From Oscillatoria sp. SIO1A7 (GTDB taxonomy: Bacteria > Cyanobacteriota > Cyanobacteriia > Cyanobacteriales > Laspinemataceae), in NCBI GenBank assembly GCA_010672965.1, contig JAAHFN010000034.1, positions 1-64,000 on the forward strand: 64,000 bases of DNA, read 5' to 3'. How positions within the stretch are numbered: the stretch's first letter is position 1; the number at the start of each line of letters is the position of its first letter. The position numbers and the translations under genes are program-made. This document shows, in pieces, positions 5,349-60,560 of this stretch. The notes under the pieces are model-generated. The model had not been told where the DNA came from and searched no databases. It saw nothing but the letters and a program-made list of their open reading frames with translations.

Positions 5349-5502
5349 TATAGCGTTTCTCAAATAAGTGTAATGAACAATCGCCTTGGAGGGCTTAGGG
5401 GCGACAGCATCCCCAAGACAATCTCGGCGACCCGAACGACAACCCCCGTAGTGGGATGCGCGGGCCCCAGATAACCTCACATTAATTTTAGAAATGCTAT
5501 AT
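5349..5502. mobile_element. MITE family A copy, orientation 1 (TATAGCGTTTCTCAAAT inverted repeats around a GGGGCGACAGCATCCCC...GGGATGCG hairpin core)
   Basis: Shares its termini and core with the copies at 14996-15148, 23371-23507 and 42151-42303. Confidence 0.6.
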
Positions 5503-5771
5503 TTCTCCTCCTACATTACAAGTTCTAGATCGGAGGCGCATTTTACACCCTACATTCATCTATATATAACTGTTGTTTTTTTAAAAAATTAAAATGAAAA
5601 ACAGTCATATTATATTTATAGTCCTAATCCTTGCTGCTTTTCATAAAAAAACATGGCAAATATTGCTATAGATACGATTTATGCCATAGCCAGGAGGATA
5701 TTTTTATAGCGTTTCCTTCCTGGCCGATCTCGGGTTTAGCCAAGTCCTAATCCCTAAACATACTCGCCCTT

Positions 5772-6446
5772 TTACGAGTCTGTAACCAACTCGGTATTCA
5801 GTTCGTTAATGGGTTTTCTCTTCAGCTCTAGGGATTGAGATCTTGGTAGCAGGTCGTACACTTCTCGGAAGGCATCATCTACCTCCTCAAACGGAACCTG
5901 TCCTTTGCCATTGAAGGCTACTTTGCCCGACTGGTCTATCAAAACAGTTTGAGGAACTACATTTTGGTAGTAATAACCAGGCTCGGATGGCTCGTATGTA
6001 GTTTTAACTGGAATAGCATCTACGTTAATAGGAATAAAATCCGCTGCGCGGCCGTAGTATGCCTGTAACTGAGATACCACAGTTGCATATTGCTTACAAT
6101 CGCTGCTGTCATCGAGATAAAATACCAACAATGCTGCTTTATCCTCTCTTTTGAGAGCTTTTTCTAGGTTTACTTTGGGAGGCACCAGAGAGCCATTCCC
6201 TCCATAGAGGGCATAAATATTGCCATCAAAACGATCGTCGTTAAGACTGGCTAGGGCTGGTGGCATGGCCAGAAAGCAAAAACAGATTGCTGTCAGAAGC
6301 GCGCTTTTGAAGCAACGGAGCCAAGATTTGGGTAGATTTGACGCTACGAAATTTTTAATCGAGGGACAGCCAGCGATCGCACTACGCGATTCTCCTGCCC
6401 AGACGCTCTTGTAAAGCCAGTTAAAACACCATTTCAAAAAAGCCAT
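5772..6446 (-). CDS. Thioredoxin-fold protein (TlpA/thiol-disulfide oxidoreductase-like), membrane-anchored; start uncertain (ORF extends to 6503)
   Basis: Hydrophobic N-terminal segment and ...ALLVFYLDDSSDCKQY... thioredoxin-like core; a weak call. Confidence 0.45.
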   Translation of the reverse strand: MAFLKWCFNWLYKSVWAGESRSAIAGCPSIKNFVASNLPKSWLRCFKSALLTAICFCFLAMPPALASLNDDRFDGNIYALYGGNGSLVPPKVNLEKALKREDKAALLVFYLDDSSDCKQYATVVSQLQAYYGRAADFIPINVDAIPVKTTYEPSEPGYYYQNVVPQTVLIDQSGKVAFNGKGQVPFEEVDDAFREVYDLLPRSQSLELKRKPINELNTELVTDS

Positions 6447-6468
6447 AGAGCGATCTTTGGGAATTACG

Positions 6469-6954
6469 TTAGTTTTTTTGTAGCTTATCGAACAGTTTTT
6501 CATCTATATCGTAGCCAAGCAGTTGAACCATTGATGTGAGTTGGGATTTACTGGGGAGTCCCCGTTCCTGAAGCCAAAGAGCTATCGCGAATATCTTTCC
6601 CATCACAAAAATTTCCAAAGCCTCTGGGTTATACAGAATACCCTGAGTGCGATTAAACTCGTGGGGCACCAGCATCGCGACATAGCGAGCTAGTTCTCCT
6701 GCTTTCCAATCCAGCAATACCGGCAACCAAGGATAGCGAGCATCCAGACGAATAAACCAGAGACGAATTTCTGGTATTTCCGATAATTCGCGAGGATCTG
6801 ACGGTTCCAGGGGGTAGTTAATGGAAAAGCGCAGTCCCTCAGAGGTCTTAACTGAATTTGGGTCCTCTAAAAACTTTTCAATAGCACTTTCAGCGGGAGA
6901 CAGGTCCAAATTAACTACTATCTCAGAGTTTATGACTATTGTTGCCATTGGCAC
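6469..6954 (-). CDS. conserved hypothetical protein
   Basis: 161-aa ORF (IRLWFIRLDARYPWLPVLLDWKAGELARYVAML) with good coding potential; no known motif. Confidence 0.45.
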   Translation of the reverse strand: MPMATIVINSEIVVNLDLSPAESAIEKFLEDPNSVKTSEGLRFSINYPLEPSDPRELSEIPEIRLWFIRLDARYPWLPVLLDWKAGELARYVAMLVPHEFNRTQGILYNPEALEIFVMGKIFAIALWLQERGLPSKSQLTSMVQLLGYDIDEKLFDKLQKN

Positions 6955-7006
6955 GCTTTAGATATGGGTAATTTCCAGAAATTTTAGTAAGGGAGTATTT
7001 CTGTCA

Positions 7007-7093
7007 GGACTTACGCAGAAGGCAAGTTATAGTAGGGTGCGCCTTTTAGCACTCTTCGCCTAAACTGTCGATCCTATAATTTGCGTAAGTGCT
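7007..7093. mobile_element. MITE family B copy (AGGACTTACGCA ... TGCGTAAGTgCT inverted repeats)
   Basis: Terminal inverted repeats shared with the 13865-14127, 43243-43416, 46398-46514, 47164-47251 and 53884-53970 copies. Confidence 0.5.
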
Positions 7094-7420
7094 GTCTGTA
7101 TTGTACCTGAAGGCGCGATCGCTCTTCGTGCGAGCTTACTTGGGCGCTTTTCCCACAAGGGAGCCAAAAAGCCCAATGGTTGGGGCTTTCGCTTAGGGGG
7201 GAAATCCTCAAAAATCAACATCCTAGCCCGAGAGAGCGCTTCTGTAAGGAAATGATAATGCCAATGTTTGGGCAGAATCTAAACCAAGAAATGCAAGGGA
7301 CCAAAGAATAGGTAACCTAAGATAGAATCTATCGTTACAGTTAAGAGCTAGTAGGTGTCCCATCCAATGGTTTTCATCAACTAACCTATAAAAAACACTT
7401 GCATTCCGGAGGCTGCCGCC

Positions 7421-7867
7421 GTGAAACCAATTAGATCGTTAGAAGATGCTTTGAATCAATGCCGAGTTCTGGGGATGCGCCTCTCGCGTCAGCGCCGTTT
7501 TATTCTGGAGCTGCTCTGGCAAGTACAAGAACATCTATCGGCAAGAGAAATCTACGATCGCTTAAATCAAGCGGGCAAGGCCATTGGTCATACCTCAGTC
7601 TATCAAAACCTAGAGGCCCTATATAGCCAGGGTATCATTGAATGTATAGAACGCTCTGACGGTCGCTTATATGGGAATATTAGCGATTCTCACAGTCATG
7701 TAAATTGTTTGGACACCGGGCAACTATTAGACGTTTATATCCAGTTACCTAGGGACCTTATCGAAGAAGTGGAACGGCAAACCGGAGTGCAAATCGCCGA
7801 CTATAGGATTGAGTTTTATGGAAAGACAAAAAATAATGAGGAATCCGAGCAAAATGTTTCTACTTGA
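7421..7867 (+). CDS. Fur-family transcriptional regulator (Fur/Zur/PerR type)
   Basis: Winged-helix N-terminus with HTSVYQNLEAL; metal-binding HSH..C motif (SDSHSHVNCLDTG); GTG start. Confidence 0.85.
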   Translation: MKPIRSLEDALNQCRVLGMRLSRQRRFILELLWQVQEHLSAREIYDRLNQAGKAIGHTSVYQNLEALYSQGIIECIERSDGRLYGNISDSHSHVNCLDTGQLLDVYIQLPRDLIEEVERQTGVQIADYRIEFYGKTKNNEESEQNVST

Positions 7868-8280
7868 TTCTTAGGTTGCTAGCAAAAAATAAGTGCGAAG
7901 CTGGTAAATCAAATGGAAAGGCTTGGGACTCAAAGCGTAAGACTAAAGATGTGCAGCTTAATTCACAGAGAAACTTGTTTATTAACTTAGAGCTTAATTA
8001 AGAAAATAAATTCATAATAATAAAAACTTAAGAAAGGGATGTTTTGTTAGTCCACAATGGTGAGTTTGGGGGCTACCGCAGAAATTACCAGCCAGTGCAT
8101 TTCCAACTCTCTTTCCAGCGAAATCATCTGGAACTGTCGGGATGCCGTCGGGATGCCTTGGTTATCCCGAGATACGATCGCTACTGTGTTTATTGCACCC
8201 CACCTCTATACTGGGTAAAAGCTTTGAGGTGGTAGGGAATGGCCGCAAAATTGACAAGGGAAGGGGTTGTTGGGTTAAGC

Positions 8281-12862: not shown

Positions 12863-13085
12863 ACAGCTAACAGCGGTCAGCTCTCAGCAGTCAGCGGTTA
12901 CTGCTTAAGCTCCGATCGCATTTTGATAAAATAAAAGATTGTTAAGCTCGGGTGTGGACCGCGATGCTTTGCCGTTCCCGAATAGTATAGTCATTTCAAT
13001 TAAGTTTGATACAGTTACAAGCGCTCTTATTGTAGGGGCGATTCGCGAATCGCCCCTACATCCTGTCTCATTTTTATTTGAAATG

Positions 13086-13188
13086 ACAATAAGCTATGAA
13101 TGTGCCCAATGCCCAATTCCCAATGCCCAATTCCCAATGCCCAATTCCCAATGCCCAATTCCCAATGCCCAATTCCCAATGCCTCGTT
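13086..13188. repeat. STRR heptamer tandem repeat (CCCAATG/CCCAATT) x14
   Basis: Read directly; it creates spurious N-terminal extensions on the flanking ORFs. Confidence 0.9.
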
Positions 13189-13790: not shown

Positions 13791-13864
13791 ACTAGACAAT
13801 AAGCACGCTTTGGATTAAATTACGATAGGCGATCGCTCTTGGCATACTGGCTGAAAAGCCATAT

Positions 13865-14127
13865 AGGACTTACGCAAAATATCCAAATATGGTGTTTTGT
13901 AGGGGCAATCCCCCTGTGGTTGCCCCGTCCGTAGAGTTATATCAAATCCGGTTAAACATTTACAATATTTGTAGGGGTTCCCCGGGAGCGCCCCGGCCGC
14001 CTCAATCCACCCCAGCCTCTCCGAGGAGGGCTCCCAGGAGCGGAAGCCAACCGGGGCGCTCCCGGGGGCACCGCCCCTACGGAATTTATGGGTCATTAAT
14101 CGGATTTGATATTAATGCGTAAGTCCT
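13865..14127. mobile_element. MITE family B copy (AGGACTTACGCA / TGCGTAAGTCCT inverted repeats, GC-rich hairpin core)
   Basis: Inverted repeats at both ends; internal GTAGGGGCAATCCCCC hairpin as in the other copies. Confidence 0.5.
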
Positions 14128-14178
14128 ACCATAGAAAGTCTCGGCCGCGATCGCTTTGCTCTATTTGGTACAGAACAA

Positions 14179-14994
14179 ATGACATTAATCGTTTCTCCAG
14201 AGTGGCTTAACGAACATCTCGAAGATGAAGATCTAGTTATTGTAGATTGCCGCTTTTCTCTGGCGGACTCTGAAGAAGGTGCAAGGCAATATCAGGCCAG
14301 TCACATTCCGGGAGCCAGCTATCTACATTTAAACCGCGACCTTTCAGCGCCAGTAGCCAAGCATGGGGGACGCCATCCTTTGCCCGACCCTGCGGAGCTG
14401 TCTGAGAAATTGGCCAGTATCGGAATTAATTCGGGGAAAACTTTGGTAGTTGCTTATGATGATACTCGCTTTGCATTTGCCGGTCGTCTCTGGTGGTTGC
14501 TGCAATATATGGGACATTCTCGCGCTGCGGTTTTGGATGGGGGATGGGGAGGCTGGCTTTCTGCTGGCTATGGTACGACCAATGAGTTACCGCAAAAAAT
14601 AGGCGGCAATTTTCTGCCCGAAATTCAAGTAGGAATGGTGGTGGATATTGAAACGGTGAAGGCGCGCAAAGATTTGCCCGGTGTTGCTCTGGTGGATTCT
14701 CGCGATCGCGATCGCTATCTGGGGGAGCGAGAACCTATAGATCCGATTGCCGGTCACATTCCCGGAGCGGTTAACTATCCCTGGAAAGATGCGACCGATG
14801 AGGGGGGCAAAGCGCGACCCGCCGAGGCACAAAGCCAGCGGTGGACTCAGCTAGATTCTGCTGAAGAAATTATCGTTTATTGCGGCTCGGGGGTGACTGC
14901 TTGCACCAATTTATTATCTTTAGAAATAGCAGGGAAAAAGAATAGCAAACTCTATGCCGGTAGCTGGAGCGATTGGTGTTCTTATTTAGTTTAA
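14179..14994 (+). CDS. sseA: 3-mercaptopyruvate sulfurtransferase (tandem rhodanese domains)
   Basis: Two rhodanese domains; active-site loop CGSGVTA is the MST-type signature. Confidence 0.85.
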   Translation: MTLIVSPEWLNEHLEDEDLVIVDCRFSLADSEEGARQYQASHIPGASYLHLNRDLSAPVAKHGGRHPLPDPAELSEKLASIGINSGKTLVVAYDDTRFAFAGRLWWLLQYMGHSRAAVLDGGWGGWLSAGYGTTNELPQKIGGNFLPEIQVGMVVDIETVKARKDLPGVALVDSRDRDRYLGEREPIDPIAGHIPGAVNYPWKDATDEGGKARPAEAQSQRWTQLDSAEEIIVYCGSGVTACTNLLSLEIAGKKNSKLYAGSWSDWCSYLV

Positions 14995-14995
14995 C

Positions 14996-15148
14996 TATAG
15001 CGGGTCTCAAATTGATGTGAGGTGTCTGGGGCGAAGCATCCCAATATGAGAGTTGCCATTAGGAGCCCCGAGATTGTCGCTCGTGATGCTGTCGCCCCTA
15101 CGTTTCTAGGACTCGATACTTTATTACACTTATTTGAGAAACGCTATA
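14996..15148. mobile_element. MITE family A copy, orientation 2, immediately after the sseA stop
   Basis: TATAGCGGGTCTCAAAT...GGGGCGAAGCATCCC...GATGCTGTCGCCCCTAC...ATTTGAGAAACGCTATA. Confidence 0.65.
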
Positions 15149-15163
15149 TTTTTGACTAGATAA

Positions 15164-16255
15164 TTAAACGGTCTCGTAGCGACCCAACAAGAGACACTCT
15201 ACCAATCCGTCGCTTGTTTCTTGCCCTAGAAATCTCTGGGGGAAATCATTGACAATGCGGCGGCAGCGGTTAATGAATGCTCTAGCCCAATGTTCCAACT
15301 GTTCCTGCTCCCAACTGTTCAAGGTTGCATCTCTGGCACCTCTAAAAATCATTTTTCCAGAGGATAGGATTTCAAATTTGTCTAACCATTCTGCCTCCGG
15401 GCGGCTTGTCTTCCAGTAATGCAGTACCACCCGCATTCCCAAGTAGCGGTGCGCCAGCTCGCTGAGTCGGTTTAAGGCTGACAAATATTCGGCCAAAGTC
15501 GCCTCTGCCTCTGAGTCTAGTTCTGAGCGCGAAGCCAAAAGACGCAAATGGGAATTCTTTCCCAGGCTCTTGAACTGCAAGGGCGAAGGATTGAAAGGCG
15601 GCGGGTTGCCGGAGTTTACACTACGAGCTTCCTCAAGAATGCTTGTGTTTGCTTCGGGCCGTTGTTCTCGCTGGGCTTCCGGTTCCCAAACCCAGATAGC
15701 ATAGCCTTTTGCTGTCTGGGTTATTACTACGCGATCGCCCCCCCACTCCAGCTTGGCTTTAGCTGCTAGGGCTTTCTTTATGTTTGGAAAACTTCGAGCA
15801 AAACTGTAATGTTTCTTATCTATCGCAATCGCAGGCAAGCGTTCTGTCAGATTTGGGATGCGTATATAGCAGGTTTCGTATTCGTCGCGATAGAGAAAAA
15901 TACCTTTGGGAGCCGAGACTAAAGACAGCGCCTCTAGATCTATAAGCTCCTCCTCGGACCGGGGAGGTTTTTCCCCAGTAGATTGGTCGCTTGCTCTGGC
16001 TTCTTCTTCCAGAGCATCGGCGATCGCTTCTAGCTTTTTCGCCTGCTTTCTTAGCGATATTGCATATTCAAGCAATTTATCCCTCATTTTTCTAGCATTA
16101 CCTTTAGTAATGCGTCTGGATTGGTTAGTTAGGTTAGAGCCTTGACTGATTCTTAGCTTCAATTTTGCCAAAACAAGATTAAAACCCACATTCCGCAGGT
16201 TGAAAAAAACATCAATTTTTAGCTTAAATTCCCTCCAGGCTTGGGTGGAGAGCAT
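15164..16255 (-). CDS. hypothetical protein
   Basis: 363-aa ORF with coding-like composition; no motif recognised. Confidence 0.5.
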   Translation of the reverse strand: MLSTQAWREFKLKIDVFFNLRNVGFNLVLAKLKLRISQGSNLTNQSRRITKGNARKMRDKLLEYAISLRKQAKKLEAIADALEEEARASDQSTGEKPPRSEEELIDLEALSLVSAPKGIFLYRDEYETCYIRIPNLTERLPAIAIDKKHYSFARSFPNIKKALAAKAKLEWGGDRVVITQTAKGYAIWVWEPEAQREQRPEANTSILEEARSVNSGNPPPFNPSPLQFKSLGKNSHLRLLASRSELDSEAEATLAEYLSALNRLSELAHRYLGMRVVLHYWKTSRPEAEWLDKFEILSSGKMIFRGARDATLNSWEQEQLEHWARAFINRCRRIVNDFPQRFLGQETSDGLVECLLLGRYETV

Positions 16256-28507: not shown

Positions 28508-29284
28508 CTACAGATCGTCAAGATTAATTCCTTGTCGCCGCAGTATTTCTTCTAGTGCCTGTACCCGAGCGATCGCCTCACTAGCTTGCTCTTGGGCTTG
28601 TTGTTTTTCCTCCTGGGTCTGTTGTAATTGCTCCTGAAGCTGTTCTTTTTCCTCCTGGGCCAGTTGTTTTTCTGCCTGAGCCAGTTGTTTTTCCGCCTGG
28701 GCCTCTCGTACTTGCTGCTTTAACTCCACAGAGGTTAAAAAGCGCTCCCCCTCCGGGTCATATAGCTGCAGAGATTTCTCTGTCATCTCGAACCGTATTC
28801 CCAAAAGCGGAGATATCCAGCCATTCATTTGCTCTATGGCCTTCAACCTTCCTCCCTCTCTTTGATATCCCGTCAACTTTAATCTATCTGGGTCGTAGAT
28901 ATAATATTCTTCTACCCCGTGACTCTGATAGAATCGCAGTTTATCCGACATCTCAGAGGAGGTATTGCTTGGAGACAGGATTTCAAACGCTACCTGGGGA
29001 GCAATGTCCTCTTCTAGCCATTGCTTATACGAGCCTCGCCTTCCCTTCGGCCGCCCAAATGCTACCATCACGTCCGGCGCTTGGCACTTTCTTGAACCTT
29101 CTGTTGGATACCAGAGCAAATCCCCGGCTATAAATACGTTGGCAACCGCAGCAAATATAATTTCTAAGTTTTCCTTGATTATTACGATCCATTTATACTG
29201 TTCTGTATTGTCTGACATTGGCTTGCCGTCGCTGTCTGGATAGACTATCTCTGGTTTTTGGTTTGCTTCTAGTTGTTGTACCAT
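28508..29284 (-). CDS. Uma2-family (DUF820) PD-(D/E)XK endonuclease, copy 1
   Basis: PDVMVAF...APQVAFEILSPSNTSSEMSDKLRFYQSHGVEEYYIYDP Uma2 core; C-terminal Q/E/K coiled-coil tail. Confidence 0.8.
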   Translation of the reverse strand: MVQQLEANQKPEIVYPDSDGKPMSDNTEQYKWIVIIKENLEIIFAAVANVFIAGDLLWYPTEGSRKCQAPDVMVAFGRPKGRRGSYKQWLEEDIAPQVAFEILSPSNTSSEMSDKLRFYQSHGVEEYYIYDPDRLKLTGYQREGGRLKAIEQMNGWISPLLGIRFEMTEKSLQLYDPEGERFLTSVELKQQVREAQAEKQLAQAEKQLAQEEKEQLQEQLQQTQEEKQQAQEQASEAIARVQALEEILRRQGINLDDL

Positions 29285-29487
29285 AGATTTTGATTCCTTT
29301 GCTATTGGTCAACATAAATAGATATTACCATTTTTTTTCGCGTTGCTGCGTTCAATGAATCTGCGATTGTAGCGATCGCGTAAGCATTTCCATAGGAAAA
29401 TCGCTCCTTTTGCGGCTGCTAAACATTCGCACCGCAAAAGGAGCGATATCTTTAAAATTCCAGAGATTGGACATTTATTTTTTTAGC

Positions 29488-30306
29488 CTACAGCTCCTCA
29501 AGATTAATTCCTTGTCGCCGCAGCATTTCTTCTAGTGCTTGTATCCTGGATATGGCCTCAGTGGCTTGCTCCTGGGTCTGTTGTAATTGCTCCTGAAGCT
29601 GTTGGGCCTGCTCCTCTGCTACAGTCGCTCTTTCCTGGGCTTGTTGTTTTTCCTCCTGAGCCTGTTGTTTTTCTGCCTGGGCCTGTTGTTTTTCCGCCCG
29701 AGCCTGTTGGGCTTGCTCCTCCGCTGCGATCGCTCGTTCCTCTAATTCCACAGAGGTTAAAAAGCGTTGCCCGTTTGGGCGATATAGCTCCAGAGATCCC
29801 TTTGTCATCTCGAACCGTATTCCCAAAAGCGGAGATATCCAACCATTCATTTGCTCTATGGCCTTCAACCTTCCTCCCTCTCTTTGATATCCCGTCAACT
29901 TTAATCTATCTGGGTCGTAGATGTAATACTCTTCTACCCCGTGAGCTTGATAGAATCGCAGTTTATCCGACATCTCAGAGGAGGTATTGCTTGGAGACAG
30001 GATTTCAAACGCTACCTGGGGAGCAATGTCCTCTTCCAGCCATTGCTTATACGAGCCTCGCCTTCCCTTTGGCCGCCCAAATGCTACCATCACGTCCGGC
30101 GCTTGGCACTTTCTTGAACCTTCTGTTGGATACCAGAGCAAATCCCCGGCTATAAATACGTTGGCAACCGCAGCAAATATAATTTCTAAGTTTTCCTTGA
30201 TTATTACGATCCATTTATATTGTTCTGTATTGTCTGACATTGGCTTGCCGTCGCTGTCTGGATAGACTATCTCTGGTTTTTGGTTTGCTTCTAGTTGTTG
30301 TACCAT
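29488..30306 (-). CDS. Uma2-family (DUF820) PD-(D/E)XK endonuclease, copy 2 (diverged C-terminal coiled coil)
   Basis: Identical to copy 1 over the N-terminal roughly 170 aa; the tail has a different number and sequence of QAQ/EKQ repeats. Confidence 0.8.
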   Translation of the reverse strand: MVQQLEANQKPEIVYPDSDGKPMSDNTEQYKWIVIIKENLEIIFAAVANVFIAGDLLWYPTEGSRKCQAPDVMVAFGRPKGRRGSYKQWLEEDIAPQVAFEILSPSNTSSEMSDKLRFYQAHGVEEYYIYDPDRLKLTGYQREGGRLKAIEQMNGWISPLLGIRFEMTKGSLELYRPNGQRFLTSVELEERAIAAEEQAQQARAEKQQAQAEKQQAQEEKQQAQERATVAEEQAQQLQEQLQQTQEQATEAISRIQALEEMLRRQGINLEEL

Positions 30307-38251: not shown

Positions 38252-38409
38252 TGGGCATTGGGCCCCTACGCCCCGGAGGGCGGGCTACGCCTACGACTTG
38301 CCTCGGGATAAAATTGGGCATTGGGCATTGGGCATTGGGCATTGGGCAGGGGGTCTTACAAGGGTATGTTTTTTAGATTAGGCATTCTTGAGAGGTATCG
38401 ATTGAGGAC

Positions 38410-38646
38410 GTAGGGGCGACAGCATTCCCGAGACAGCTTTTGCAAATAGATCAAAAATATTGTATTGGAATGCTTCGCCCCAGAAACCGTAGGGGCGACA
38501 GCATTCCCGAGACAGCTTTTGCAAATAGATCAAAAATATTGCATTGGAATGCTTCGCCCCAGAAACCGTAGGGGCGACAGCATTCCCGAGACAGCTTTTG
38601 CAAATAGATCAAAAATATTGTATTGGAATGCTTCGCCCCAGAAACC
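38410..38646. repeat. Three tandem 79-bp copies of the MITE family A hairpin core (GTAGGGGCGACAGCATTCCCGAGACAG...TTGGAATGCTTCGCCCCAGAAACC)
   Basis: Three near-identical units with no spacers, so not a CRISPR. Confidence 0.85.
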
Positions 38647-38735
38647 TGTGCAGGAAGGAGGATTATTAATTATAAAATCTGAATTGATACAACTCTCAAT
38701 GCCCAATGCCCAATGCCCAATGCCCCATATTATAT

Positions 38736-38978: not shown

Positions 38979-41900
38979 TTACGGCCGTATCTGAATAGCG
39001 TTTTGAAAAAATTCAAGGTTTTTGTAATTGGACTCCGTCGTAGATTCTTCTGGCGTAACAATCGGTACACCTTGGTGCCAAGCTCGATAAAAGTCTGGAT
39101 AAGGTATATTTTCGGCACAGTACCAAGCAATCTCGTAACAGGCTTCGTTTTTTACCCTGCCTCTCACTAATTTGACGATTTGCACAAAATGGTTGATTGA
39201 CAAAATAATTTCTTTTAGGCTATCAGCCGCTAGCAAACCTACGAATTCATCTTCAGCAAATTTGGCCAACTGCACCAGAATGGATAAGGGCTGGAAATTA
39301 CCAGGGTCAATTTTAGCCAAGAGAGCGGCTCCTTGGCAACGGGTTAATTCATCTTCGGCAGACTCGATCCACTGCACCATAATGGATATAGCCCGGGGAT
39401 CCTCCATGTAAGTTTCCAGTAAGCTATCAGCCGCTTGGCTACGGGTGGGTTTGTTTTTAGCATAATTGCCCGCTCGCACCATAATGGATATGCTTTCGGA
39501 GTTCGCCGGGTCGATTTTCTCTAAGTTATAAGCTGCTATCTTACGGGTGAATTGATGTTTAGCAGATTTGACTAAATATACTAGAGCAGATTTGGCCTGG
39601 AAACTGCCCGCACCAATTTTCCCCAGGCTCTCAGCTGCTTGCAAACGGGTAGATTCATTTTTAGCATACTGGAGCAACTGCACAATAGCAAGTATGGCTT
39701 TGGGGTTTCCCACGCCAATTGCTCCCAAGCTATAAGCCGCTTGTCTACGAGTGTCTTCATCTTCAGCAGAATTGAGCCATTGCACCATAGCAGATATGGC
39801 TTCTGGGTTCCCCTCACCAATTTTACCCAATTCATAAGCCGCTTTCTTACGGATGGATTCATTTTCATCAGAATTTAGTAATTGCACTAGAGCAGATATA
39901 GCTCTTTGAGTATCAGTTTCCTCCAAAGCAATTCTCGCTCCGTTCTCAATATCGTCATATTTCCGGTTACCAGTAAAACCCCACTCAAATAACTGCTTGA
40001 CAATCTCATTCGCTCTTCGGCATTGCTGGAATTCCGCAATACCGGCGGCTGCTAAAAAATAGGCTCTATATTTATAAAAGTCATTGCACTTATCCTCAAA
40101 ACTCACCAATGCCTCGATAAATTGCTCCTTTTCTTCCTGCAGCACGTCGTCGCGTCCGAGCCAGAGCAAAATTACTTGTTTCCACTGGGGCTCGAAAATA
40201 CGATAATTGCCTCGCTCGGGTTCATCGGGAACGTGATTTAGGAAAAAATGCCAATCCTCGATCGCCGTTGCCGCAAAATATTCCTGAAACGTCGGATGAT
40301 AGAAAGCATAGACCTCTTCATCGGGACTTTCTGCGGCCAAGCCCACCTTATTGAGCCAGCCGAGTTGCGTTGCCAACTCGAATAAGCGATCGCTCTCTTG
40401 TCCCAAAACCCGAGATACCAAGCTCTGCTTCAGCCGAAAGCGAGACTCGTCTCTATCTATGGCTACCTTTGCCAATTCTCCTAAAGCCCGATTTAACTCA
40501 TCTCGTTCCGTCGGAGTGCTGGGAAATTCCCGGTCTTTCCAGCTATAAAACTTATCCACAAATCCTTTGTATAGTTTGGCCTTAGTATCCGGCAAGCCTC
40601 CTAGATCTTTCCACAAGCGCCAAGTGCTACAGAGCAGCGCCAAGCGCAGGGGATTTTTGGCCAAATCTTTGATGCGCCTTTTCTCCGATCGCTCCATCTC
40701 CCGTCGCAACTTCTCGCCCAACTCCGGCTCTCGCTGAAACCACTTGCCGATAAACTCGCCCACTTGGTTGCCAGTTTTCCCATCCCCATAGCTAAACTCC
40801 AAAGTGCGATAAATCTCGAATTCGCTCGCTAGAGCATTGCGGTTTGCTTCCCAGAGGTTGAGGCGACAAGTCAGCACTACTCGCCCTTGGCCGACCCAAC
40901 CGCTTAACTGCTTTTGAATTGCCCGAAGCGCTTCCAGGCGGCGAGCAGGCATTTCATCTATCCCATCCAAGAGCAGCCAGGCTTTCCCGTCACGAAACTT
41001 ATCTTTAAACTTGACTTTGACCCTTTCTGTTAAATCCGTAACTCGTTCCACCGCATTTTTCAACCATTTCTCCAGCAAATATTCTTCCAGAAAATCCCGG
41101 TTGGCCTCGGGTTCTGGCAAATCTGCCGCCGCAATTAAAATTGGCAAATATGTAGTATTGTCCAGAAGCCAAAAAGCAACTTTGCGGGCTAGGGTGGTTT
41201 TGCCCGCGCCCGGTTCGCCAATTATAGCAATCCGCTTGCCCTGACTTTTGCCCTTGCCCCCGCCAAGAATATCCGTTAAAAATTGCTGGTGTTGAAAGCG
41301 CTGTTTCTCTTCATACTCGGGCTCGTAGAGGCGCGACCCTTGCTCTGGAGAATACTCTTCCTCAAGCGAAGCTGTTTTTTTGCGCTCGACCAGAGCCAAG
41401 GGAACGTGTATTTCATCCAGCTCGAAGCAGTTTTCTTCGTACTGCATCAGCTCGTTAGTGGTCAAATGTTTTTGTTCTGCTAAAATTTGGCGGCAGATAT
41501 CGCGCCATTGGATTGCTGGTTCCGGCTCGCCGCTAACTTCTGGCTGCGGCTCGGAACCTATATAAACGTTGTTAGCTTTTTTAAAGACGATGTTGTTATC
41601 GCCTTGTACATTTGCATTTTGGCTATCTTCGTTGTAATTACCGACGGGACCAATGGTGCGATCGATTGTATTAGCTGCCTCGGCCTTAATCTCCTTAATA
41701 CTTAACTTGCCCTCTTGGCCGAGAGTCTGGTTCTGACCTGGTAGCTGAGGTTGCTCGGCTATGCCAGTAGGAGCGATCGCCGTCATCATCTCGTATTCTT
41801 TTAGCAACAAGTTCAGAAAATCTCGCTGCTCTATCCCAACTAAATCTTTAATAGCGCTTAAAAACAATCCCAAAGCTTCTTGTTGGGAAGCCAAGCGCCC

Positions 41901-42089
41901 CCAAGCCTCCAAGTAGCTTACGATTCTGCTCGTCGCTTCAAATTGGGAACCAGACAGATCTATTTTGGGGGCTATTTCTCCGAGATCCGCCAAAGTCAAG
42001 ATATTCCGACGACCTTTCTCCGTCGCTAGCTCTGGCAATCTTTCGAGTAGGGCGATTAGTTGCTTGCGATGCTTATCAGACAGTTTCAT
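38979..42089 (-). CDS. STAND NTPase: N-terminal EAD1-type effector-associated domain, NACHT domain, C-terminal PBS-lyase-type HEAT repeats
   Basis: N-terminal roughly 100-aa helical domain (LSDKHRKQLIALLERL...IVSYLEAWGRL); Walker A IAIIGEPGAGKTTLARK; Walker B LLLDGIDEM; NACHT helical modules; about ten repeats of the pattern SIR..AAYELGKIG.GNPEAI.ALVQLL. Confidence 0.85.
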   Translation of the reverse strand: MKLSDKHRKQLIALLERLPELATEKGRRNILTLADLGEIAPKIDLSGSQFEATSRIVSYLEAWGRLASQQEALGLFLSAIKDLVGIEQRDFLNLLLKEYEMMTAIAPTGIAEQPQLPGQNQTLGQEGKLSIKEIKAEAANTIDRTIGPVGNYNEDSQNANVQGDNNIVFKKANNVYIGSEPQPEVSGEPEPAIQWRDICRQILAEQKHLTTNELMQYEENCFELDEIHVPLALVERKKTASLEEEYSPEQGSRLYEPEYEEKQRFQHQQFLTDILGGGKGKSQGKRIAIIGEPGAGKTTLARKVAFWLLDNTTYLPILIAAADLPEPEANRDFLEEYLLEKWLKNAVERVTDLTERVKVKFKDKFRDGKAWLLLDGIDEMPARRLEALRAIQKQLSGWVGQGRVVLTCRLNLWEANRNALASEFEIYRTLEFSYGDGKTGNQVGEFIGKWFQREPELGEKLRREMERSEKRRIKDLAKNPLRLALLCSTWRLWKDLGGLPDTKAKLYKGFVDKFYSWKDREFPSTPTERDELNRALGELAKVAIDRDESRFRLKQSLVSRVLGQESDRLFELATQLGWLNKVGLAAESPDEEVYAFYHPTFQEYFAATAIEDWHFFLNHVPDEPERGNYRIFEPQWKQVILLWLGRDDVLQEEKEQFIEALVSFEDKCNDFYKYRAYFLAAAGIAEFQQCRRANEIVKQLFEWGFTGNRKYDDIENGARIALEETDTQRAISALVQLLNSDENESIRKKAAYELGKIGEGNPEAISAMVQWLNSAEDEDTRRQAAYSLGAIGVGNPKAILAIVQLLQYAKNESTRLQAAESLGKIGAGSFQAKSALVYLVKSAKHQFTRKIAAYNLEKIDPANSESISIMVRAGNYAKNKPTRSQAADSLLETYMEDPRAISIMVQWIESAEDELTRCQGAALLAKIDPGNFQPLSILVQLAKFAEDEFVGLLAADSLKEIILSINHFVQIVKLVRGRVKNEACYEIAWYCAENIPYPDFYRAWHQGVPIVTPEESTTESNYKNLEFFQNAIQIRP

Positions 42090-42150: not shown

Positions 42151-42303
42151 TATAGCATTTCTCAAATTGATGTGAGGTTATCTGGGGCGAAGCATCCCTA
42201 TAGGGAAATTCCCGTTTGGAGTGCCGAGATAGTCTTGGGGATGCTGTCGCCCCTACGCCCCTCAACCCGATCCGTTCATTACACTTATTTGAGAAACGCT
42301 ATA
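42151..42303. mobile_element. MITE family A copy, orientation 2, in the promoter region of the NACHT gene
   Basis: TATAGCATTTCTCAAATTGATGTGAGG...GGGGCGAAGCATCCC...GGGGATGCTGTCGCCCCTAC...ATTTGAGAAACGCTATA. Confidence 0.65.
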
Positions 42304-43972: not shown

Positions 43973-44150
43973 TTATTATTTCAGATACTTATCCTATTTG
44001 TTATTTGCTATTAATTGGAGAAATAGAATTATTGTCTCAACTCTACGGTCAAGTGCTGATTCCTACAAAAGTCCAAGAGGAGTTGTCCGACAAGCGATCG
44101 CCTGCTATTGTTAAAAGTGCAATACAATACAATTCCCAATTCCCAATTCC
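43969..44150 (+). pseudogene. DUF3368-type PIN toxin, N-terminal fragment truncated by an STRR tract
   Basis: [39 protein letters not shown] is the N-terminus of a roughly 150-aa DUF3368 protein; the frame then runs into AATTCCC repeats. Confidence 0.5.
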
Positions 44151-44302
44151 CAATTCCCAATTCCCAATTCCCGATTCCCGATTCCCGATTCCCAATTCCC
44201 AATTCCTAATTCCCAAAAAGCCCGGTTTCTTCAAGAAACCGGGCTTTTATATTGCGCCCAAAAAAACGGTTTATCGAAAAAAACCGGTTTTTTATATTAG
44301 CT

Positions 44303-52772: not shown

Positions 52773-52777
52773 AATAC

Positions 52778-54939: not shown

Positions 54940-57900
54940 ATGGAAGTAAAAACATACAGACAAGAAGAAAGCGCTAGATCCTTAGCGCCGTCGGAAGTAC
55001 CGTCCGACCTAATGTTGCAGCATCGCCTGAAAATAGTAGAGAATATCTGGGAGGATGCCCTCAGGCAGGAGTGCGGTCAGGAACTGCTGGAGCTGCTACA
55101 GCAATTGCGCTCTATGCGAAGTCCTGAAGGACAAGCCCCGAACTTGTCTGTAAAGTCAGAATTAGTTAACTTGGTCGAAGGGTTGGAATTAAACGATGCT
55201 ATCCGAGCCGTCCGTGCCTTCGCCCTTTACTTTCAGCTCATCAACATTGTCGAGCAGCACTACGAGCAGCGGGCTCAATTGACGTACCGCCGCGACGATC
55301 GCACAAAAACTGCTAGCTCGGAATCGGTTTTTGTATCTAACGGGTTTAAAGGAAATAGCGATAGCCAAGAACTAGGGAGTTTCCAAAACCTATTTCCTAA
55401 GCTGCGATCGCTCAACGTACCGCCAGCTCAAATCCAAAATCTACTCGATAGTCTGGAAATACGGCTGGTTTTGACAGCGCACCCAACGGAAATAGTCCGC
55501 CAAACCCTGCGCAGCAAGCAGCGACGCATAGCCAAAATATTGCAAAAATTTGACGACAATGCCGAAGCGCTCGTTAGCTCGGGAGAGATTGAAACGAATA
55601 ACTCCAACTTAATAGAGGAGCTGACGGAAGAGATACGGCTTTGGTGGCGTACCGACGAACTGCATCAATTCAAACCCAGCGTACTAGATGAAGTCGATTA
55701 CGCCCTGCACTACTTCAAAGAGGTGCTGTTCGACACGGTGCCCCAACTGCACCAGCGTCTCAAACAGGACTTGCAAAACACATTCCCCTACTTGCAGCCA
55801 CCTCGTTACGACTTCTGTAGGTTTGGCTCTTGGGTGGGAGCAGACCGAGATGGCAATCCTTCTTGCACCCCCTTAACCACCTGGAAAACCGCCTGCTATC
55901 AGCGGCAACTGGTACTAGAAAAATACATTCAGTCGGTAAAACAGGTTCAGGAGCGCCTGAGTCTTTCCCTGCATTGGAGCGACGTATTGCCGGAATTGCT
56001 CGAATCCCTCGAACAAGACCGTTTGGCCATGCCAGAAATATACGACGCCCTGGCCATTCGTTACCGGCAAGAACCCTATAGGTTAAAGCTGGCCTACGTC
56101 GTCAAGCGACTGGAAAATACTCTCGATCGCAACTTCCGCCTGTACCGAGAAGAAGAAAGCCTCGTGGTACTGGAAAAAACAAAGACCGAATCTATTTACA
56201 GCTCCGGTCGGGAATTTATGGCCGAGTTGCTCCTGATTCAACGCAACCTCGCTGAAACAGGTCTAAACTGCGGCAGCCTGGAAACTCTAATTGCTCAAGT
56301 AGAAATTTATGGTTTCTATTTAACAGAGTTAGACGTTCGCCAGGAGTCGTCGCGCCACTCGGATGCTATAGATGAAATCGCCTCCTACTTGCAAGTCTTG
56401 CCAAAGTCTTACAAAGATATGGCGATCGCAGAACGAACTGCGTGGCTGACCGGAGAATTGCAAACCCGGCGGCCGCTCGTACCAGGGGAGTTGCCTTTTT
56501 CCGAGAAGACCTGCGAAACGATTGAAACATTCAAAACTTTGCGGCGAGTGCAGCGGGAGTTTGGCCAAGAAATCTGCCGCACTTACATTATCAGCATGAG
56601 CCATGAGGTCAGCGACTTATTGGAAGTTCTGCTCCTGGCTAAAGAAGCGGGACTCTACGACCCGGCTACCGGCTCTGGGACCATCGCAGTTGTGCCTCTA
56701 TTTGAAACAGTAGAGGATTTGAAGCGAGCCCCATCAGTAATGCAGCACTTATTCGAGCTGCCCCTATATCGCGCCCTCCTCGCAGGGGGTTACGCGGCAC
56801 TAGACCAAGAGAATTCTAGCGGCGCTGACAATACCTCCCCCCGGACATCGGCACCATCTCTCCAGGAAGTCATGCTTGGTTATTCCGATAGCAACAAAGA
56901 TTCGGGATTCCTCAGCAGCAATTGGGAAATTCATAAAGCTCAGAAAGCCCTGCAAAAAGTAGCCGAACCGTTTGGTGTTGCTTTGCGCATTTTCCACGGA
57001 CGCGGCGGTTCCGTAGGTCGCGGCGGCGGCCCCGCTCACGAAGCTATTATGGCGCAACCCAATCGCACCATCAAGGGGCGGATTAAGATAACCGAACAAG
57101 GGGAAGTCTTGGCCAGTAAATATACTCTGCCAGAGTTGGCGCTCTACAACTTAGAGAACGTGGCCACTGCTACCATTAAGGCCAGCTTATTGGGGACTGG
57201 GTTTGACGACATCGAGGCGTGGAATGAAATTATGGAGGAGCTGGCCACGCGATCGCGCCAACATTACCGCGCCCTAATTTACGAACAGCCAGACCTAATC
57301 GACTTTTTCCACGAAGTCACCCCCATCCAAGAAATCAGCCAACTGCAAATATCTTCCCGTCCGGCTCGTCGTTCCAGCGGCAAAAAAGACATCGGCGGCT
57401 TGCGGGCTATTCCTTGGGTCTTTAGTTGGACTCAAACCCGCTTCCTATTACCCGCCTGGTATGGGGTGGGTACTGCCCTGCAAGACTTCTTGAGCCAGGA
57501 ACCGGAGCAACATCTCAAGCTGCTGCGCTACTTCTATCTGAAATGGCCGTTCTTCAAGATGGTTATTTCTAAAGTAGAGATGACTCTATCTAAAGTGGAT
57601 ATGGAGGTTGCCCACCACTACGTCCGCGAACTAGGCAGCGCCGAACGACTTGAAAAGTTTGAGGCTTTGTTCGAGACAATATTTAGCGAATACGAGCTGA
57701 CCCGCAACTTAATTTTGGAGATTTCCGAACAGTCGCGGCTTTTGGATGGCAACCCAACTTTGCAGCGCTCGGTGCAGTTGCGCAACGGTTCTATCGTGCC
57801 CCTTAGTTTGTTGCAAGTTTCTCTGCTCAAACGGCTGCGCCAGCACCAAAATCAAGCCTCCTCCGGGGTGATTCACTCTCGTTATAGTAAGGGCGAATTG

Positions 57901-57960
57901 CTGCGCGGTGCCTTATTGACCCTCAATGGTATTGCTGCTGGTATGCGTAATACTGGATAA
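54940..57960 (+). CDS. ppc: Phosphoenolpyruvate carboxylase
   Basis: [13 protein letters not shown] signature; [14 protein letters not shown]; C-terminal ...MRNTG; 1006 aa. Confidence 0.9.
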
Positions 57961-58078
57961 GTGAAAAGTGAATAGTGAATAGTGAATAGTGAATAGTGAA
58001 TAGTTAAGAGTTAAGAGTTAAGAGTTGAAAAAACTAATTATCCAACTTTTCACTTTTCACTTTTCACTTTTCACTTCT
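57961..58078. terminator. STRR-based long inverted repeat (GTGAAAAGTGAATAGTGAAT... / ...TTTCACTTTTCAC) immediately after the ppc stop
   Basis: AGTGAAT and AGTTAAG heptamer tracts followed by their reverse complement TTTCACT tracts. Confidence 0.45.
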
Positions 58079-58102
58079 CCTAACCCACACCCTAACTAAT
58101 CT

Positions 58103-58585
58103 ATGAAACGATTTACTACTTGTACGATCGCAGCTTTTGTATCTGGATTGCTTGGGGGCTATCTGGGGGCTCAAATTAGCGTTTTGGCTCATGTTGCTAA
58201 TTGCCAAAATAAACCCTCCGCAACCGCTGCTCTATGCCAAGTTGGGGGTTTCGGTGCTTCTCTATGGCAAGGAACTGTTGCGGGTCTATGGACGGGCAAT
58301 ATTTTAGGAGCCTTTTTTGCCGGTACGTTTCTTTCCAGACAACAATCCAGACAAAAATATAGATTGCAACCAGGATTTGGCTCTGAGGTTTCCGAAGAGC
58401 AAGAGCCAAGAATATCCTTTACCCAGTTGCAATCTATCGTCGAAGATGCGGGACTGTCTTTTGGCGAACTAACTATAACCCACTCCGATGCTGTTGCCTT
58501 GTTGCGTTCCCTCGGATTAAATCAAGAAGCAATAGACGCTGTTTTGCATAAATTTGAATTACCGCAGCAGTTAGAGGAGTCATAA
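58103..58585 (+). CDS. hypothetical membrane protein
   Basis: Hydrophobic N-terminal two-thirds; no motif. Confidence 0.45.
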   Translation: MKRFTTCTIAAFVSGLLGGYLGAQISVLAHVANCQNKPSATAALCQVGGFGASLWQGTVAGLWTGNILGAFFAGTFLSRQQSRQKYRLQPGFGSEVSEEQEPRISFTQLQSIVEDAGLSFGELTITHSDAVALLRSLGLNQEAIDAVLHKFELPQQLEES

Positions 58586-58633
58586 AAAAAGATTATTTTC
58601 CAACTGCGCGGCGCTCGATTGGGCACAGATAAA

Positions 58634-59941
58634 TTAATCGTCAATGTTTCTTTTAGTTCTGACTTGCACTGAGAAGGCGTGGGAATGCAATCCTTCAGAA
58701 TTGGCAAGAACCTCAATAGAGCTAGAGACCTTATGGAGGGCAAGAGAAGAATATTGAATTAGGCTGGAACTTTTGAGAAAAGTTTCCACCCCCAAGGCCG
58801 AAGCATAACGGGCAGCACCAGAGGTAGGCAGGGTATGGTTAGGGCCGGCTAAATAGTCTCCTACTGCTTCGGGAGTGGAATTGCCGAGGAATATAGCTCC
58901 GGCGTGGCGAATCTTCTCTAGCAAATCCCAGGGTTCTGCAACCTGTAGCTCTAGGTGTTCTGGGGCAAATTGATTGGACAGTTCGGCGGCATCTTCTAGG
59001 GAATCGACTACGATCGCTATTCCATAGTGAGCGATCGCCTTTTCTACCAGAGTGCGCCGAGGGTGGTTTTCCAACTGCTTTTCTACCTCGGCGACCACAT
59101 TATGAGCCAGAGTGGCATCGGTGGTAATAAGGATAGCCGAAGCCATTGAATCATGTTCTGCCTGAGCCAACATATCTGCAGCTAGGTGGGTTGGGTTAGC
59201 CCCGCCGTCCGCAATAATCAACACTTCCGATGGGCCAGCTAGAGAATCTATTCCCACCGTACCTACCACTAACTTTTTCGCTAGGGTCACATAGATATTC
59301 CCCGGGCCGGTAATTACATGGGTTGGTGCCACCGTTTCCGTGCCATAAGCAAGAGCGGCGATCGCTTGTGCCCCACCCACTCTATATATTTCCTCGATTC
59401 CCGATTCCTGCGCTGCCACCAACACCGCTGGGGATATTGCCCCTCCTGGACCCGGCGGGGTCATCATGGCAATTCTCGGCACCCCAGCCACCTTAGCCGG
59501 GATTGCATTCATCAAAACGGTACTCGGATAGGCAGCTAGCCCCCCTGGTACATAAATACCTGCACTATCTACAGGGGTATAGCGCTTGCCTAAAACCACC
59601 TCATCGTCCCCAAATTGAACCCATGATTTGGGAATGCGCTGCCGGTGAAAAGCTTCAATATTGTTGCGCGCTAGGCGTATGGCATCCAGTAATTCTCTAT
59701 CAACCTGCTGATAAGCAGCATCCATTTGGGACCCTGTAACTCGGAGTTCTTCCGCCTTGAGGGTAAGCCCGTCAAATTCAGCCGTATAGTTTAGGAGAGC
59801 CCGGTCTCCTTGGCGCTTCACTGCCTGGAGAACTTGCCGCACCGTTGCCTCCTTATGGAGCGCTTGGTCGTCGTTAGTGCGCTCGCAGATACGGTCCAGT
59901 TCGGAACGTGCCTCAGTCGGATCGGTAATGATTCGCAGCAT
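58634..59941 (-). CDS. hisD: Histidinol dehydrogenase
   Basis: 435 aa; HisD NAD-binding and zinc-binding region motifs. Confidence 0.9.
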   Translation of the reverse strand: MLRIITDPTEARSELDRICERTNDDQALHKEATVRQVLQAVKRQGDRALLNYTAEFDGLTLKAEELRVTGSQMDAAYQQVDRELLDAIRLARNNIEAFHRQRIPKSWVQFGDDEVVLGKRYTPVDSAGIYVPGGLAAYPSTVLMNAIPAKVAGVPRIAMMTPPGPGGAISPAVLVAAQESGIEEIYRVGGAQAIAALAYGTETVAPTHVITGPGNIYVTLAKKLVVGTVGIDSLAGPSEVLIIADGGANPTHLAADMLAQAEHDSMASAILITTDATLAHNVVAEVEKQLENHPRRTLVEKAIAHYGIAIVVDSLEDAAELSNQFAPEHLELQVAEPWDLLEKIRHAGAIFLGNSTPEAVGDYLAGPNHTLPTSGAARYASALGVETFLKSSSLIQYSSLALHKVSSSIEVLANSEGLHSHAFSVQVRTKRNIDD

Positions 59942-60249
59942 GGAGTTCGGAGTTGCTAAAAGGAGTTGCCCGTGGAAGAACGAGGAAAGCTGTTGGGACG
60001 TGCTTACAGCTCCTTTGACCTCGCGTCCGCTTCTTCTAGCTTAACGTGGATTTTTCTTCTCGGGGGGGTGCATTTCAATTTTGTAATGGGATAGGAAAGC
60101 GATGTGGCTAGAGGTCCTTATAAGGGGACAAGGGGACAAGGGGCAGGGGGCAGGGGGCAGGGGGCTTGCAGAGGGCTTGGGGACAAGGGGACAAGGGGAC
60201 AAGGGGACAATGTTAGGGGCCATTAAATGGTCCGCTTTTTAGATTTGGC

Positions 60250-60560
60250 GTAGGGGCGACAGCATTCCCGAAACAGTCTTTGCTCATAGAGAAAACTTTG
60301 TACTGGAATGCTTCGCCCTAGAAACCCATGCAGCCGACTGATTGCCCTCTGGGGGATAGGACTCAGGAGGAGCAGCGGGGAGCAGTAGATCTCCCAAGCC
60401 CCCTGCCCCCAAGCCCCCCTGCTTTCCTCGGGGTATGTTTTTTATAATTTCCCTTTTTGGAGTTGCCGGCAAGCGGCATAAATGTCTGGGGCGAAGCATT
60501 CCAATACAATAATTTCCTTTAAGAAAAAAGTCTGTCTCGGGAATGCTATCGCCCCTACGC
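60250..60560. repeat. Inverted pair of MITE family A 79-bp core units (60250-60326 forward, 60485-60560 reverse) around a G/C-rich spacer
   Basis: GTAGGGGCGACAGCATTCCCGAAACAG...GGAATGCTTCGCCCTAGAAACC and its reverse complement. Confidence 0.7.

Follow-up and report, generated by a model that had tools for sequence, protein, structure and literature searches.

The repeat elements described here lie in a stretch of 64,000 nucleotides of Oscillatoria sp. SIO1A7 (contig JAAHFN010000034.1, positions 1 to 64,000); this whole stretch is called the window below, and coordinates given without a locus name refer to it. The window has a G+C content of 47% and contains 83 HIP1 sites (GCGATCGC), i.e. 1.3 per kb. 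Taken with its many heptamer tandem arrays, these values mark it as DNA of a filamentous cyanobacterium. Four copies of one MITE (a transposable element of the miniature inverted-repeat type), termed MITE-A (shell A), and three of a second composite element, termed shell B, carry the same GC-rich hairpin core.

5349-5501, plus strand: MITE-A copy 1; element 5351-5499, TA on both flanks, core 5395-5474
23370-23507, plus strand: MITE-A copy 2; element 23372-23505 (134 bp), TA on both flanks, core 23405-23482
14996-15148, minus strand: MITE-A copy 3; element 14998-15146 (149 bp), TA on both flanks, core 15022-15101
42151-42303, minus strand: MITE-A copy 4; element 42153-42301, TA on both flanks, core 42178-42256
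38359-38692, plus strand: shell-B element with triplicated core; cores 38410-38487, 38489-38566 and 38568-38645
60234-60340, plus strand: truncated shell-B element; core 60250-60325
60431-60605, minus strand: complete shell-B element of 175 bp; core 60482-60558

MITE-A measures 134-149 bp, occurs in four copies per 64 kb and has no open reading frame (ORF) of its own, only read-through frames. Its terminal repeat starts with TAGCGTTTCTCAAAT (TAGCG...). The 17-nt terminal repeat TATAGCGTTTCTCAAAT was found nine times in the window at up to three mismatches, where 0.29 matches are expected by chance. Eight of these matches make up four inverted pairs and the ninth is a solitary end, possibly a decayed MITE-A copy:

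25785-25801, plus strand: solitary shell-A-like terminal repeat TATAGTTTTTCTCAAAT, with two mismatches and without a convincing partner

A profile built from the four full copies recovered the same MITE-A sites in the window and no others. An earlier note on this DNA had described four full copies with 17-bp terminal inverted repeats; its positions for the copies were right to within 1 nt and the four pairs of repeats are there, but the repeats are imperfect, reach ~26 nt, and their outermost TA is duplicated target lying outside the element. Terminal repeats and stem arms are conserved among the copies and the loop varies freely.

The insertion of MITE-A could be followed at copy 3, which lies beside a rhodanese gene. 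The rhodanese of the window is 97% identical at the protein level to that of two ENA metagenome contigs (L031 and L032), and at most about 70% identical to named proteins of Leptolyngbyaceae, Phormidium and Microcoleus. Exact-protein look-ups gave no entry for this rhodanese or for the product of the 59-aa ORF beside copy 2. Both contigs hold the same convergent pair of genes, the rhodanese and a 332/363-aa gene, with 18 bp between them, and at the DNA level are 94-95% identical to the window to the left and right of copy 3 (by BLAST, L031 294-1163 against window 14129-14998 at 95.4%, and L031 1161-2197 against window 15147-16184 at 94.0%). The copy-3 site is a single TA in L031 and L032, and in the window a TA, the 149-bp element and a second TA. 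The empty site reads ...GTCTAAC-TA-TCTTTGACTAG and the filled site ...GTTTAAC-TA(149 bp)TA-TTTTTGACTAG; over a longer stretch read by eye, L031 has ...TTTAGTCTAAC-TA-TCTTTGACTAGATAATT and the window ...TTTAGTTTAAC-TA-(TAGCGGGTCTC...149 bp...GAGAAACGCTA)-TA-TTTTTGACTAGATAATT. At copy 3 the element has inserted precisely and duplicated a 2-bp TA.

Scanning one genome per species for the pattern TATAGCRKKTCTCAAATWRRTGT yielded at least 30 loci, of which 8 kb each was fetched. TA stands on both sides of all four MITE-A copies in the window and precedes 26 of 28 terminal repeats in the window and the fetched loci, ends fixed by the search pattern itself being left out of the count. In one of the two exceptions, two elements abut on a single shared, mutated TA, as would result if one had inserted into the TA beside an older copy:

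L016 3094-3390 (Hormoscilla sp. GUM202): two end-to-end shell-A MITEs, junction ..GTGCTA-GA-TAGCGTTTC..

In an 89%-identical relative (L037), the same TA at the copy-1 site carries another element, one that is shell-C-like; intergenic TA sites such as this one are hit repeatedly. The ~150-bp units had been proposed to be transposed MITEs, a proposal that would have lost ground with gradual boundaries and missing target duplications; the clean empty site, the TA duplication and the sharp, TA-flanked ends uphold it. MITE-A is very probably a transposed, TA-duplicating MITE.

Among bacterial families, IS630/Tc1-mariner is the one known for duplicating TA strictly, and the ISL3 family makes 8-bp target duplications. 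ISL3, suggested earlier as the mobilising family, therefore does not fit the 2-bp TA, and the strict duplication of TA points to IS630/Tc1-mariner; an IS630-like transposase is the reasonably likely partner of MITE-A. Neither a transposase nor an HUH gene was found among the ~45 ORFs of the window (Pfam and motif search). In 30 loci there was no pair of terminal repeats 1-2 kb apart and no transposase beside an unpaired end, and clustering of the ORFs repeated across loci gave no autonomous MITE-A partner. Pfam searches with 20 ORFs beside unpaired terminal repeats returned ParB, NACHT-type ATPases, KaiB, Fic, glycosyltransferase and similar domains, and no transposase. Since no transposase was found among the window ORFs or in the loci, a trans-acting enzyme is required. 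A transposase made elsewhere in the genome, presumably of the IS630/Tc1-mariner type, would bind the imperfect ~17-26-bp terminal inverted repeats (TAGCGTTTCTCAAAT...), and cut-and-paste insertion of the non-autonomous MITE-A into TA would leave this dinucleotide duplicated on both sides.

The core inside MITE-A was analysed separately. Its 16-mer GTAGGGGCGACAGCAT has nine matches in the window against 0.42 expected by chance, and a covariance model built from the cores found exactly the nine window cores and none beyond them. In the core, GTAG is followed by a basal stem of 7 bp (GGGGCGA/TCGCCCC), a single bulged C, an upper stem of 8 bp (AGCATYCC/GGRATGCT) and a variable loop of 36-40 nt. 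The folding check proposed earlier for the GC-rich core gave a stable long hairpin on both strands, which fold alike (z = -4.3 to -5.1 with DNA parameters and similar values with RNA parameters). In an alignment of ten sequences 92% of the cells pair, and in controls with a slid partner column 36-51% do. Two stem pairs show compensatory changes, and there are three G-T wobbles on the GTAG strand. The compensatory change C:G>T:A separates two core subtypes, that of MITE-A and that of shell B, and T:A>A:T occurs in Okeania.

These features were compared with the repetitive extragenic palindromes (REPs), which are defined by GTAG or GTGG 0-2 nt 5' of the stem, in the long bulged form by a basal stem whose 7-20 nt are all paired, then a 1-3-nt bulge and another stem of 1-10 nt, and by a terminal loop of 2-5 nt and a total length of about 20-40 bp (PMC6006769). 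Eight of the nine cores begin with GTAG at the stem (the degenerate core of copy 1 has TTAG and a mutated right arm), and the 7-bp stem, the bulged C and the 8-bp stem lie within these limits. The core is thus like the REP/REPIN sequences and their transposase RAYT (PMC3116915, PMC6006769) in having GTAG 5' of a bulged, two-part, GC-rich stem, and also in being multi-copy and intergenic with a conserved stem and a varying loop. It is unlike them in its ~10 times longer loop, a right arm without CTAC, arms that are not palindromes and the RAYT that was not found. A REPIN doublet was considered and rejected (the arms show no more than 3-4 bp of self-complementarity, and the right end is AGA, not CTAC). 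The core appears to belong to a broad family of REP-like palindromes in cyanobacteria that have the form GTAGGGGCG...CGCCCC(TAC).

The remaining five cores had been taken for free-standing copies of a 79-bp unit, but all of them sit inside the terminal-repeat shell of shell B. The shell-B terminal repeats are GGGTATGTTTTTTAGATTT (GGGTATG...), with two matches in the window against 0 expected, and do not resemble the TAGCG... of MITE-A. The element with the triplicated core has a left terminal repeat CAAGGGTATGTTTTTTAGATTAGGCA that ends at 38384 and a degenerate right one at ~38664-38692. The truncated element retains the inner part of the left terminal repeat only (TTTTTAGATTTGGC), followed by the core and a conserved tail AGAAACCCATGCAG. 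The complete element has GGGTATGTTTTTTA(G/T)A(T/A)TT terminal repeats at both ends and closes with the inverse repeat, ...AAATTATAAAAAACATACCC. The sequence CAAGGGTATGTTTTTTAGATTTGGCATTTTTGAGGGGTA stands ahead of the triplet and of each of the two cores in the inverted pair, and in an alignment of the shell-B copies the shared sequence reaches well past the 79-bp core on both sides. The inverted core pair described earlier was found, at 60250-60325 and 60482-60558. Since the terminal repeats differ and only the hairpin is shared, MITE-A and shell B are two families, and the single family of the earlier note does not hold for the triplet and the inverted pair, which are parts of the composite shell B.

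Shell B is also present outside the window. Relatives were fished with the translated elements as protein query for spurious ORFs, and L039, which is from the same metagenome as L031 and L032, holds a complete composite of terminal repeat, core and terminal repeat at ~7949-8136 (BLAST span; the repeats reach ~8140). Two Oscillatoria sp. SIO1A7 'hypothetical proteins' are translations of the core, and one of these (P0241) also reads through the shell-B terminal repeat.

In the triplet, Tandem Repeats Finder reported 79 bp x 3.0 with 98% identity at 38409-38646. Three perfect tandem units had been described; number and length stand, but unit 2 differs by one T>C. The junctions have only 1 nt of shared homology. 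The triplet is most simply read as the core triplicated within a single shell-B copy, and slippage at the strong hairpin is the simplest cause that we infer from the 1-nt junctions. The hairpin module probably rides as cargo in MITE-A and is also present in the unrelated shell B; shell B would account for both the tandem triplet and the inverted pair, with the triplet arising by local duplication of the hairpin unit in one copy. Candidate routes by which the hairpin may have come into two shells are single-stranded DNA insertion of the HUH/RAYT type and recombination.

The terminal-repeat family of MITE-A extends over other Oscillatoriales. The TAGCGTTTCTCAAAT repeat bounds elements of 100-300 bp in Hormoscilla spp., Oscillatoria princeps, Okeania sp. 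KiyG1 and Oscillatoria sp. PCC 10802. All 30 matches listed by the scan are from Oscillatoriales, including several Hormoscilla metagenome-assembled genomes, and most of the listed loci are such elements with both terminal repeats. The interiors differ. Hormoscilla copies contain a G7/C7 hairpin; in the Hormoscilla loci the covariance model picked up no additional, diverged cores, and their interior is therefore not the hairpin of the window. O. princeps copies have a compact GTAGGGGCGGTG...CACCGCCCCTAC palindrome. Among the matches listed, the window core is present only in Okeania L005, with further compensatory changes in the stem. BLAST of MITE-A and shell B against 72,556 plasmids (PLSDB), presumably with Nostocales plasmids among them, gave no match, a terminal-repeat pattern scan of viral contigs gave 0 matches, and a literature search with the terminal-repeat and core strings returned only chance matches in unrelated papers. 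In an exhaustive search of protein representatives, the spurious ORF of the triplet had only 6 matches among 1.84 billion proteins, so core-crossing ORFs are rare; the data suggest a narrow distribution of the core. Automated censuses have found Oscillatoriales, above all Okeania sp. KiyG1, extremely rich in diverse MITEs (PMC11602168).

A protein of ~335 aa without Pfam match is repeated in the Hormoscilla loci L006, L011 (as a tandem pair) and L029; it does not adjoin MITE ends.

GTAG hairpins other than the core were also seen. GTAGGGG[CT]G sites number 39 in 304 kb of window and loci, and such hairpins are common in all fetched Oscillatoriales DNA. Two further shells in the window have such a hairpin inside:

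12986-13091: third mini-element, with terminal repeats TATAGTCATTTCAA.../...TTGAAATGACAATA resembling those of MITE-A and a GTAG...CTAC palindrome inside
13939-14112: fourth shell, with 39-nt imperfect terminal repeats (ATATCAAATCCG...) and a long, GC-rich GTAG...CTAC hairpin whose 17-bp inner arms are perfect

The third mini-element contains a 28-bp perfect palindrome, GTAGGGGCGATTCGCGAATCGCCCCTAC, at 13032-13059, identical to Okeania L005 3504-3531, where it stands alone; an element related to this third one occupies the copy-1 site in L037. A metagenome scan with the 20-nt left arm of the core gave two contigs, L035 (195-301) and L036 (772-879), both from JGI Ga0136634. Their arms, GTAGGGGCGACAGCATCCCC ... 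GGGATGCTTCGCCC, are the same as those of the core and their loops are longer (60-75 nt); the L035 variant has GTAG...CTAC symmetry, and L036 has further related arms. Both contigs are GC-rich (53-59%) with 0 HIP1 sites and may not be cyanobacterial.

Overall, we consider it likely that MITE-A is a TA-inserting MITE and that the GTAG hairpin is a separate module, found also in shell B. Several points weigh against this reading. There is only one clean empty site, that of copy 3; at the copy-1 site L037 holds another element, and L038, which is without element, is too diverged to align. An autonomous element with MITE-A terminal repeats was not found in the window or in the 30 fetched 8-kb loci, which leaves the TA duplication as the only ground for the IS630 assignment, and some IS5 subgroups also give duplications of 2-3 bp. 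With pairwise identities of 72-84%, the four MITE-A copies leave current activity unproven. As to the hairpin, the covariation sample is small (10 sequences), and with a loop of 36-40 nt in a unit of 75-80 nt, far beyond the loops of defined REPs, membership in the REPs is not established. No RAYT (an ORF with an HUH...Y motif, six frames) was detected in the window or in 39 loci, and the window ORFs gave no Pfam match to one.

Two of the alternatives concern the way in which the hairpin spreads. The core could itself be mobile, as a REP/REPIN-like unit that RAYT, an HUH tyrosine transposase, would move as single-stranded DNA into the centres of palindromic shells, with the tandem copies arising by the same mechanism. 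The GTAG immediately 5' of a GC-rich stem with a bulge, a feature shared with the REPs that RAYT recognises, the same core in two unrelated shells, the other GTAG hairpins at the centre of two more window shells (12986-13091 and 13939-14112), the identical 28-bp palindrome alone in Okeania and the arms conserved in the GC-rich, HIP1-free L035 and L036 all argue for such mobility. We nevertheless regard it as possible but doubtful: no RAYT gene is found in the window or any locus, no copy of this core was found outside a shell, there is no empty site for the core alone, the loop exceeds the 2-5 nt of the REP definition, and the right arm that ends in AGA instead of CTAC does not make a REPIN doublet. 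A further and rather unlikely reading is that GTAG hairpins in these cyanobacteria move on their own as single-stranded DNA modules and home in on the apices of palindromic, AT-rich MITEs, making nested elements. If true, this would explain the exactly central GTAG hairpin in four different window shells, one core in two unrelated shells, an identical 28-bp palindrome in two genera and near-identical arms in GC-rich contigs without HIP1. The view of the earlier note, a single MITE family with a 79-bp core that spreads and multiplies by itself as well, has in its favour the core common to all nine sites. It is improbable, as the five supposed core-only sites carry another conserved shell with its own terminal repeats, which is intact in L039 and read through by the SIO1A7 protein P0241, and the two core subtypes are distinct.

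A functional structured RNA (acting as a small RNA, in stabilising mRNA or as a site of processing) is a very improbable account of the hairpin. The stable fold, the compensatory changes with three G-T wobbles on the GTAG strand and the intergenic positions beside gene ends would suit it, but both strands fold equally well, the hairpins point both ways relative to genes (two are sense, two antisense and the others lie between genes that diverge or converge), the loop varies freely in sequence and length, and there is no U-tract terminator. Rfam gave 0 matches at gathering score in the window and, at E<=10 in the triplet region, only weak, chance-level matches to microRNA and CRISPR-repeat models; the sole CRISPR-repeat match, at 21 bits where the gathering score is 41, lies inside the shell-B terminal repeat. 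An intrinsic terminator (no T-run) and an integron attC site (no GTTRRRY/RYYYAAC core sites) were tried as well and rejected. Hardly any credence can be given to a dispersed recombination or gene-conversion repeat that never transposed, or to the triplet as a degenerate CRISPR array, although conservation is far higher in the hairpin arms than in the loops and the tandem units are regular. The empty site at copy 3, with its precise TA duplication and sharp ends, refutes a recombination-only repeat for shell A, and the CRISPR reading fails because the tandem units abut without spacers and the window has no cas domains, as the earlier note had held for the triplet. The two-shell reading, with MITE-A as a TA-inserting MITE and the hairpin as a separate module, is the one that we retain.

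MITE-A copies lie close to genes. Copy 3 sits between the convergent rhodanese and 363-aa genes and, as had been noticed, directly follows the rhodanese (sseA-like) stop codon, starting 1 nt past it (3 nt if TA is counted as target). Copy 1 is 127 bp upstream of a 202-aa ORF. Copy 2 adjoins the 3' end of a frameshifted ORF, and 16 bp downstream of the copy is the ATG of a 59-aa ORF; the first of these had been called a PIN pseudogene, and the position at its 3' end is correct but the PIN label is below threshold (PIN_3, E = 0.073). When copy 2 and one TA are removed from 23192-23702, the PIN-like ORF is in frame with the 59-aa ORF (MWQDEILEEIH...); with copy 2 present, it reads 70 codons into and past the MITE. 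Copy 4 ends 62 bp upstream of the start, at 42089, of a NACHT/EAD8/HEAT ORF. It had been placed in the NACHT promoter; the position agrees, but no promoter or terminator signal above chance was detected around copy 4. The recent activity that was read from such placements is only weakly supported: one insertion is polymorphic relative to a relative of ~95% DNA identity, but the copies differ by 16-28%, and this divergence speaks against a recent burst.

The NACHT ORF (38979-42089) encodes an EAD8-NACHT-HEAT-NCC-H STAND protein. Elsewhere in the window, an 894-aa ORF (16799-19483, plus strand) contains four kinds of Major Vault Protein (MVP) repeat domain and the MVP shoulder domain (Pfam E 1e-16 to 6e-64) and is a full-length vault-protein homologue. 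A fusion protein of caspase (Peptidase_C14) and GUN4 is encoded at 21159-22709, and two tandem Uma2-family paralogues lie at 28508-30306, in 82-84% identical repeats of 187-300 bp.

Heptamer tandem arrays are dense in the window, with dozens of them (85 rows of Tandem Repeats Finder output window-wide) built from CCCAATG/ATTGGGC, GGGTGTG, CAATTCC and other heptamers; examples are:

13103-13183: heptamer array
23700-23774: heptamer array
38313-38348: heptamer array
44130-44216: heptamer array
60611-60665: heptamer array

Shell-B elements are placed between heptamer arrays of inverted orientation, and inverted ATTGGGC/GCCCAAT arrays flank the triplet element. A 66-nt repeat, CGCYTACGACTTGCCTCGGGATAAA, occurs at 22686-22751 and 38288-38353 (94% identical), leading into ATTGGGC arrays; one copy is directly upstream of the shell-B triplet. 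A palindrome family, AGAAACCCGGTTTTTCCAAAAAACCGGGTT, has five copies at 20653, 26660, 26731, 44212 and 44256, some of which adjoin heptamer arrays.

Bacterial MITEs derived from IS630/Tc1-mariner that duplicate TA include RUP of Streptococcus pneumoniae, and the Correia/NEMIS elements of Neisseria duplicate TA and start with TATAG.... MITE-A is like these in its size class (100-160 bp), the absence of coding sequence, terminal inverted repeats, strict TA duplication, intergenic positions near gene ends, a fold-back structure and TA|TAG... termini. It differs in its own terminal-repeat sequence, its Oscillatoriales hosts, the modular interior with a GTAG hairpin and a parent insertion sequence that was not found. 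Nostoc reportedly has small dispersed repeats of 21-27 nt nested in larger repeats near heptamer arrays (Elhai et al. 2008). By their description these are likewise tiny modules inside larger repeats beside heptamer arrays, at 21-27 nt there as opposed to a 75-80-nt hairpin here.

GTAG-tagged REPs are known in filamentous cyanobacteria (Di Nocera et al. 2013, PMC3733652), and the GTAG-15 dimers of Anabaena variabilis, which lie within long TATAGGA...TCCTATA palindromes, are the closest published architecture to MITE-A. Both have a central GTAG GC-rich palindrome in an AT-rich shell with TATAG.../...CTATA ends, in filamentous cyanobacterial hosts. The sequences of shell and hairpin differ, MITE-A has one bulged hairpin with a 36-40-nt loop where A. 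variabilis has a dimer of short REPs, and no target duplication or empty site is shown for the A. variabilis shell in PMC3733652, unlike for MITE-A. The Nezha MITE of Anabaena and Nostoc (Zhou et al. 2008), as summarised in PMC3184786, measures 130-170 bp and has terminal and direct repeats, a stable fold and, between relatives, filled and empty sites. By that description MITE-A is a cyanobacterial MITE of similar size with the same kinds of terminal repeats, fold and filled/empty sites, and differs in that Nezha is found in Nostocales and is tied to ISNpu3.

MITE-A is an ordinary kind of bacterial mini-transposon and reveals no new kind of system. It adds a TA-duplicating MITE superfamily with an exchangeable interior across several Oscillatoriales genera. 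The elements break short-read assemblies, and contigs of relatives end in them. Placed within 1-62 bp of gene ends or starts, they can confuse annotation: they create spurious ORFs and C-terminal read-throughs, as where copy 2 lengthens the frameshifted ORF, and shell-B copies are annotated as 'hypothetical proteins' in Oscillatoria sp. SIO1A7. Near gene ends and starts they might also alter expression. The one REP-like hairpin common to two unrelated shells is a clear case, which makes this lineage a test bed for how REP-like hairpins spread and whether they target the centres of palindromes.

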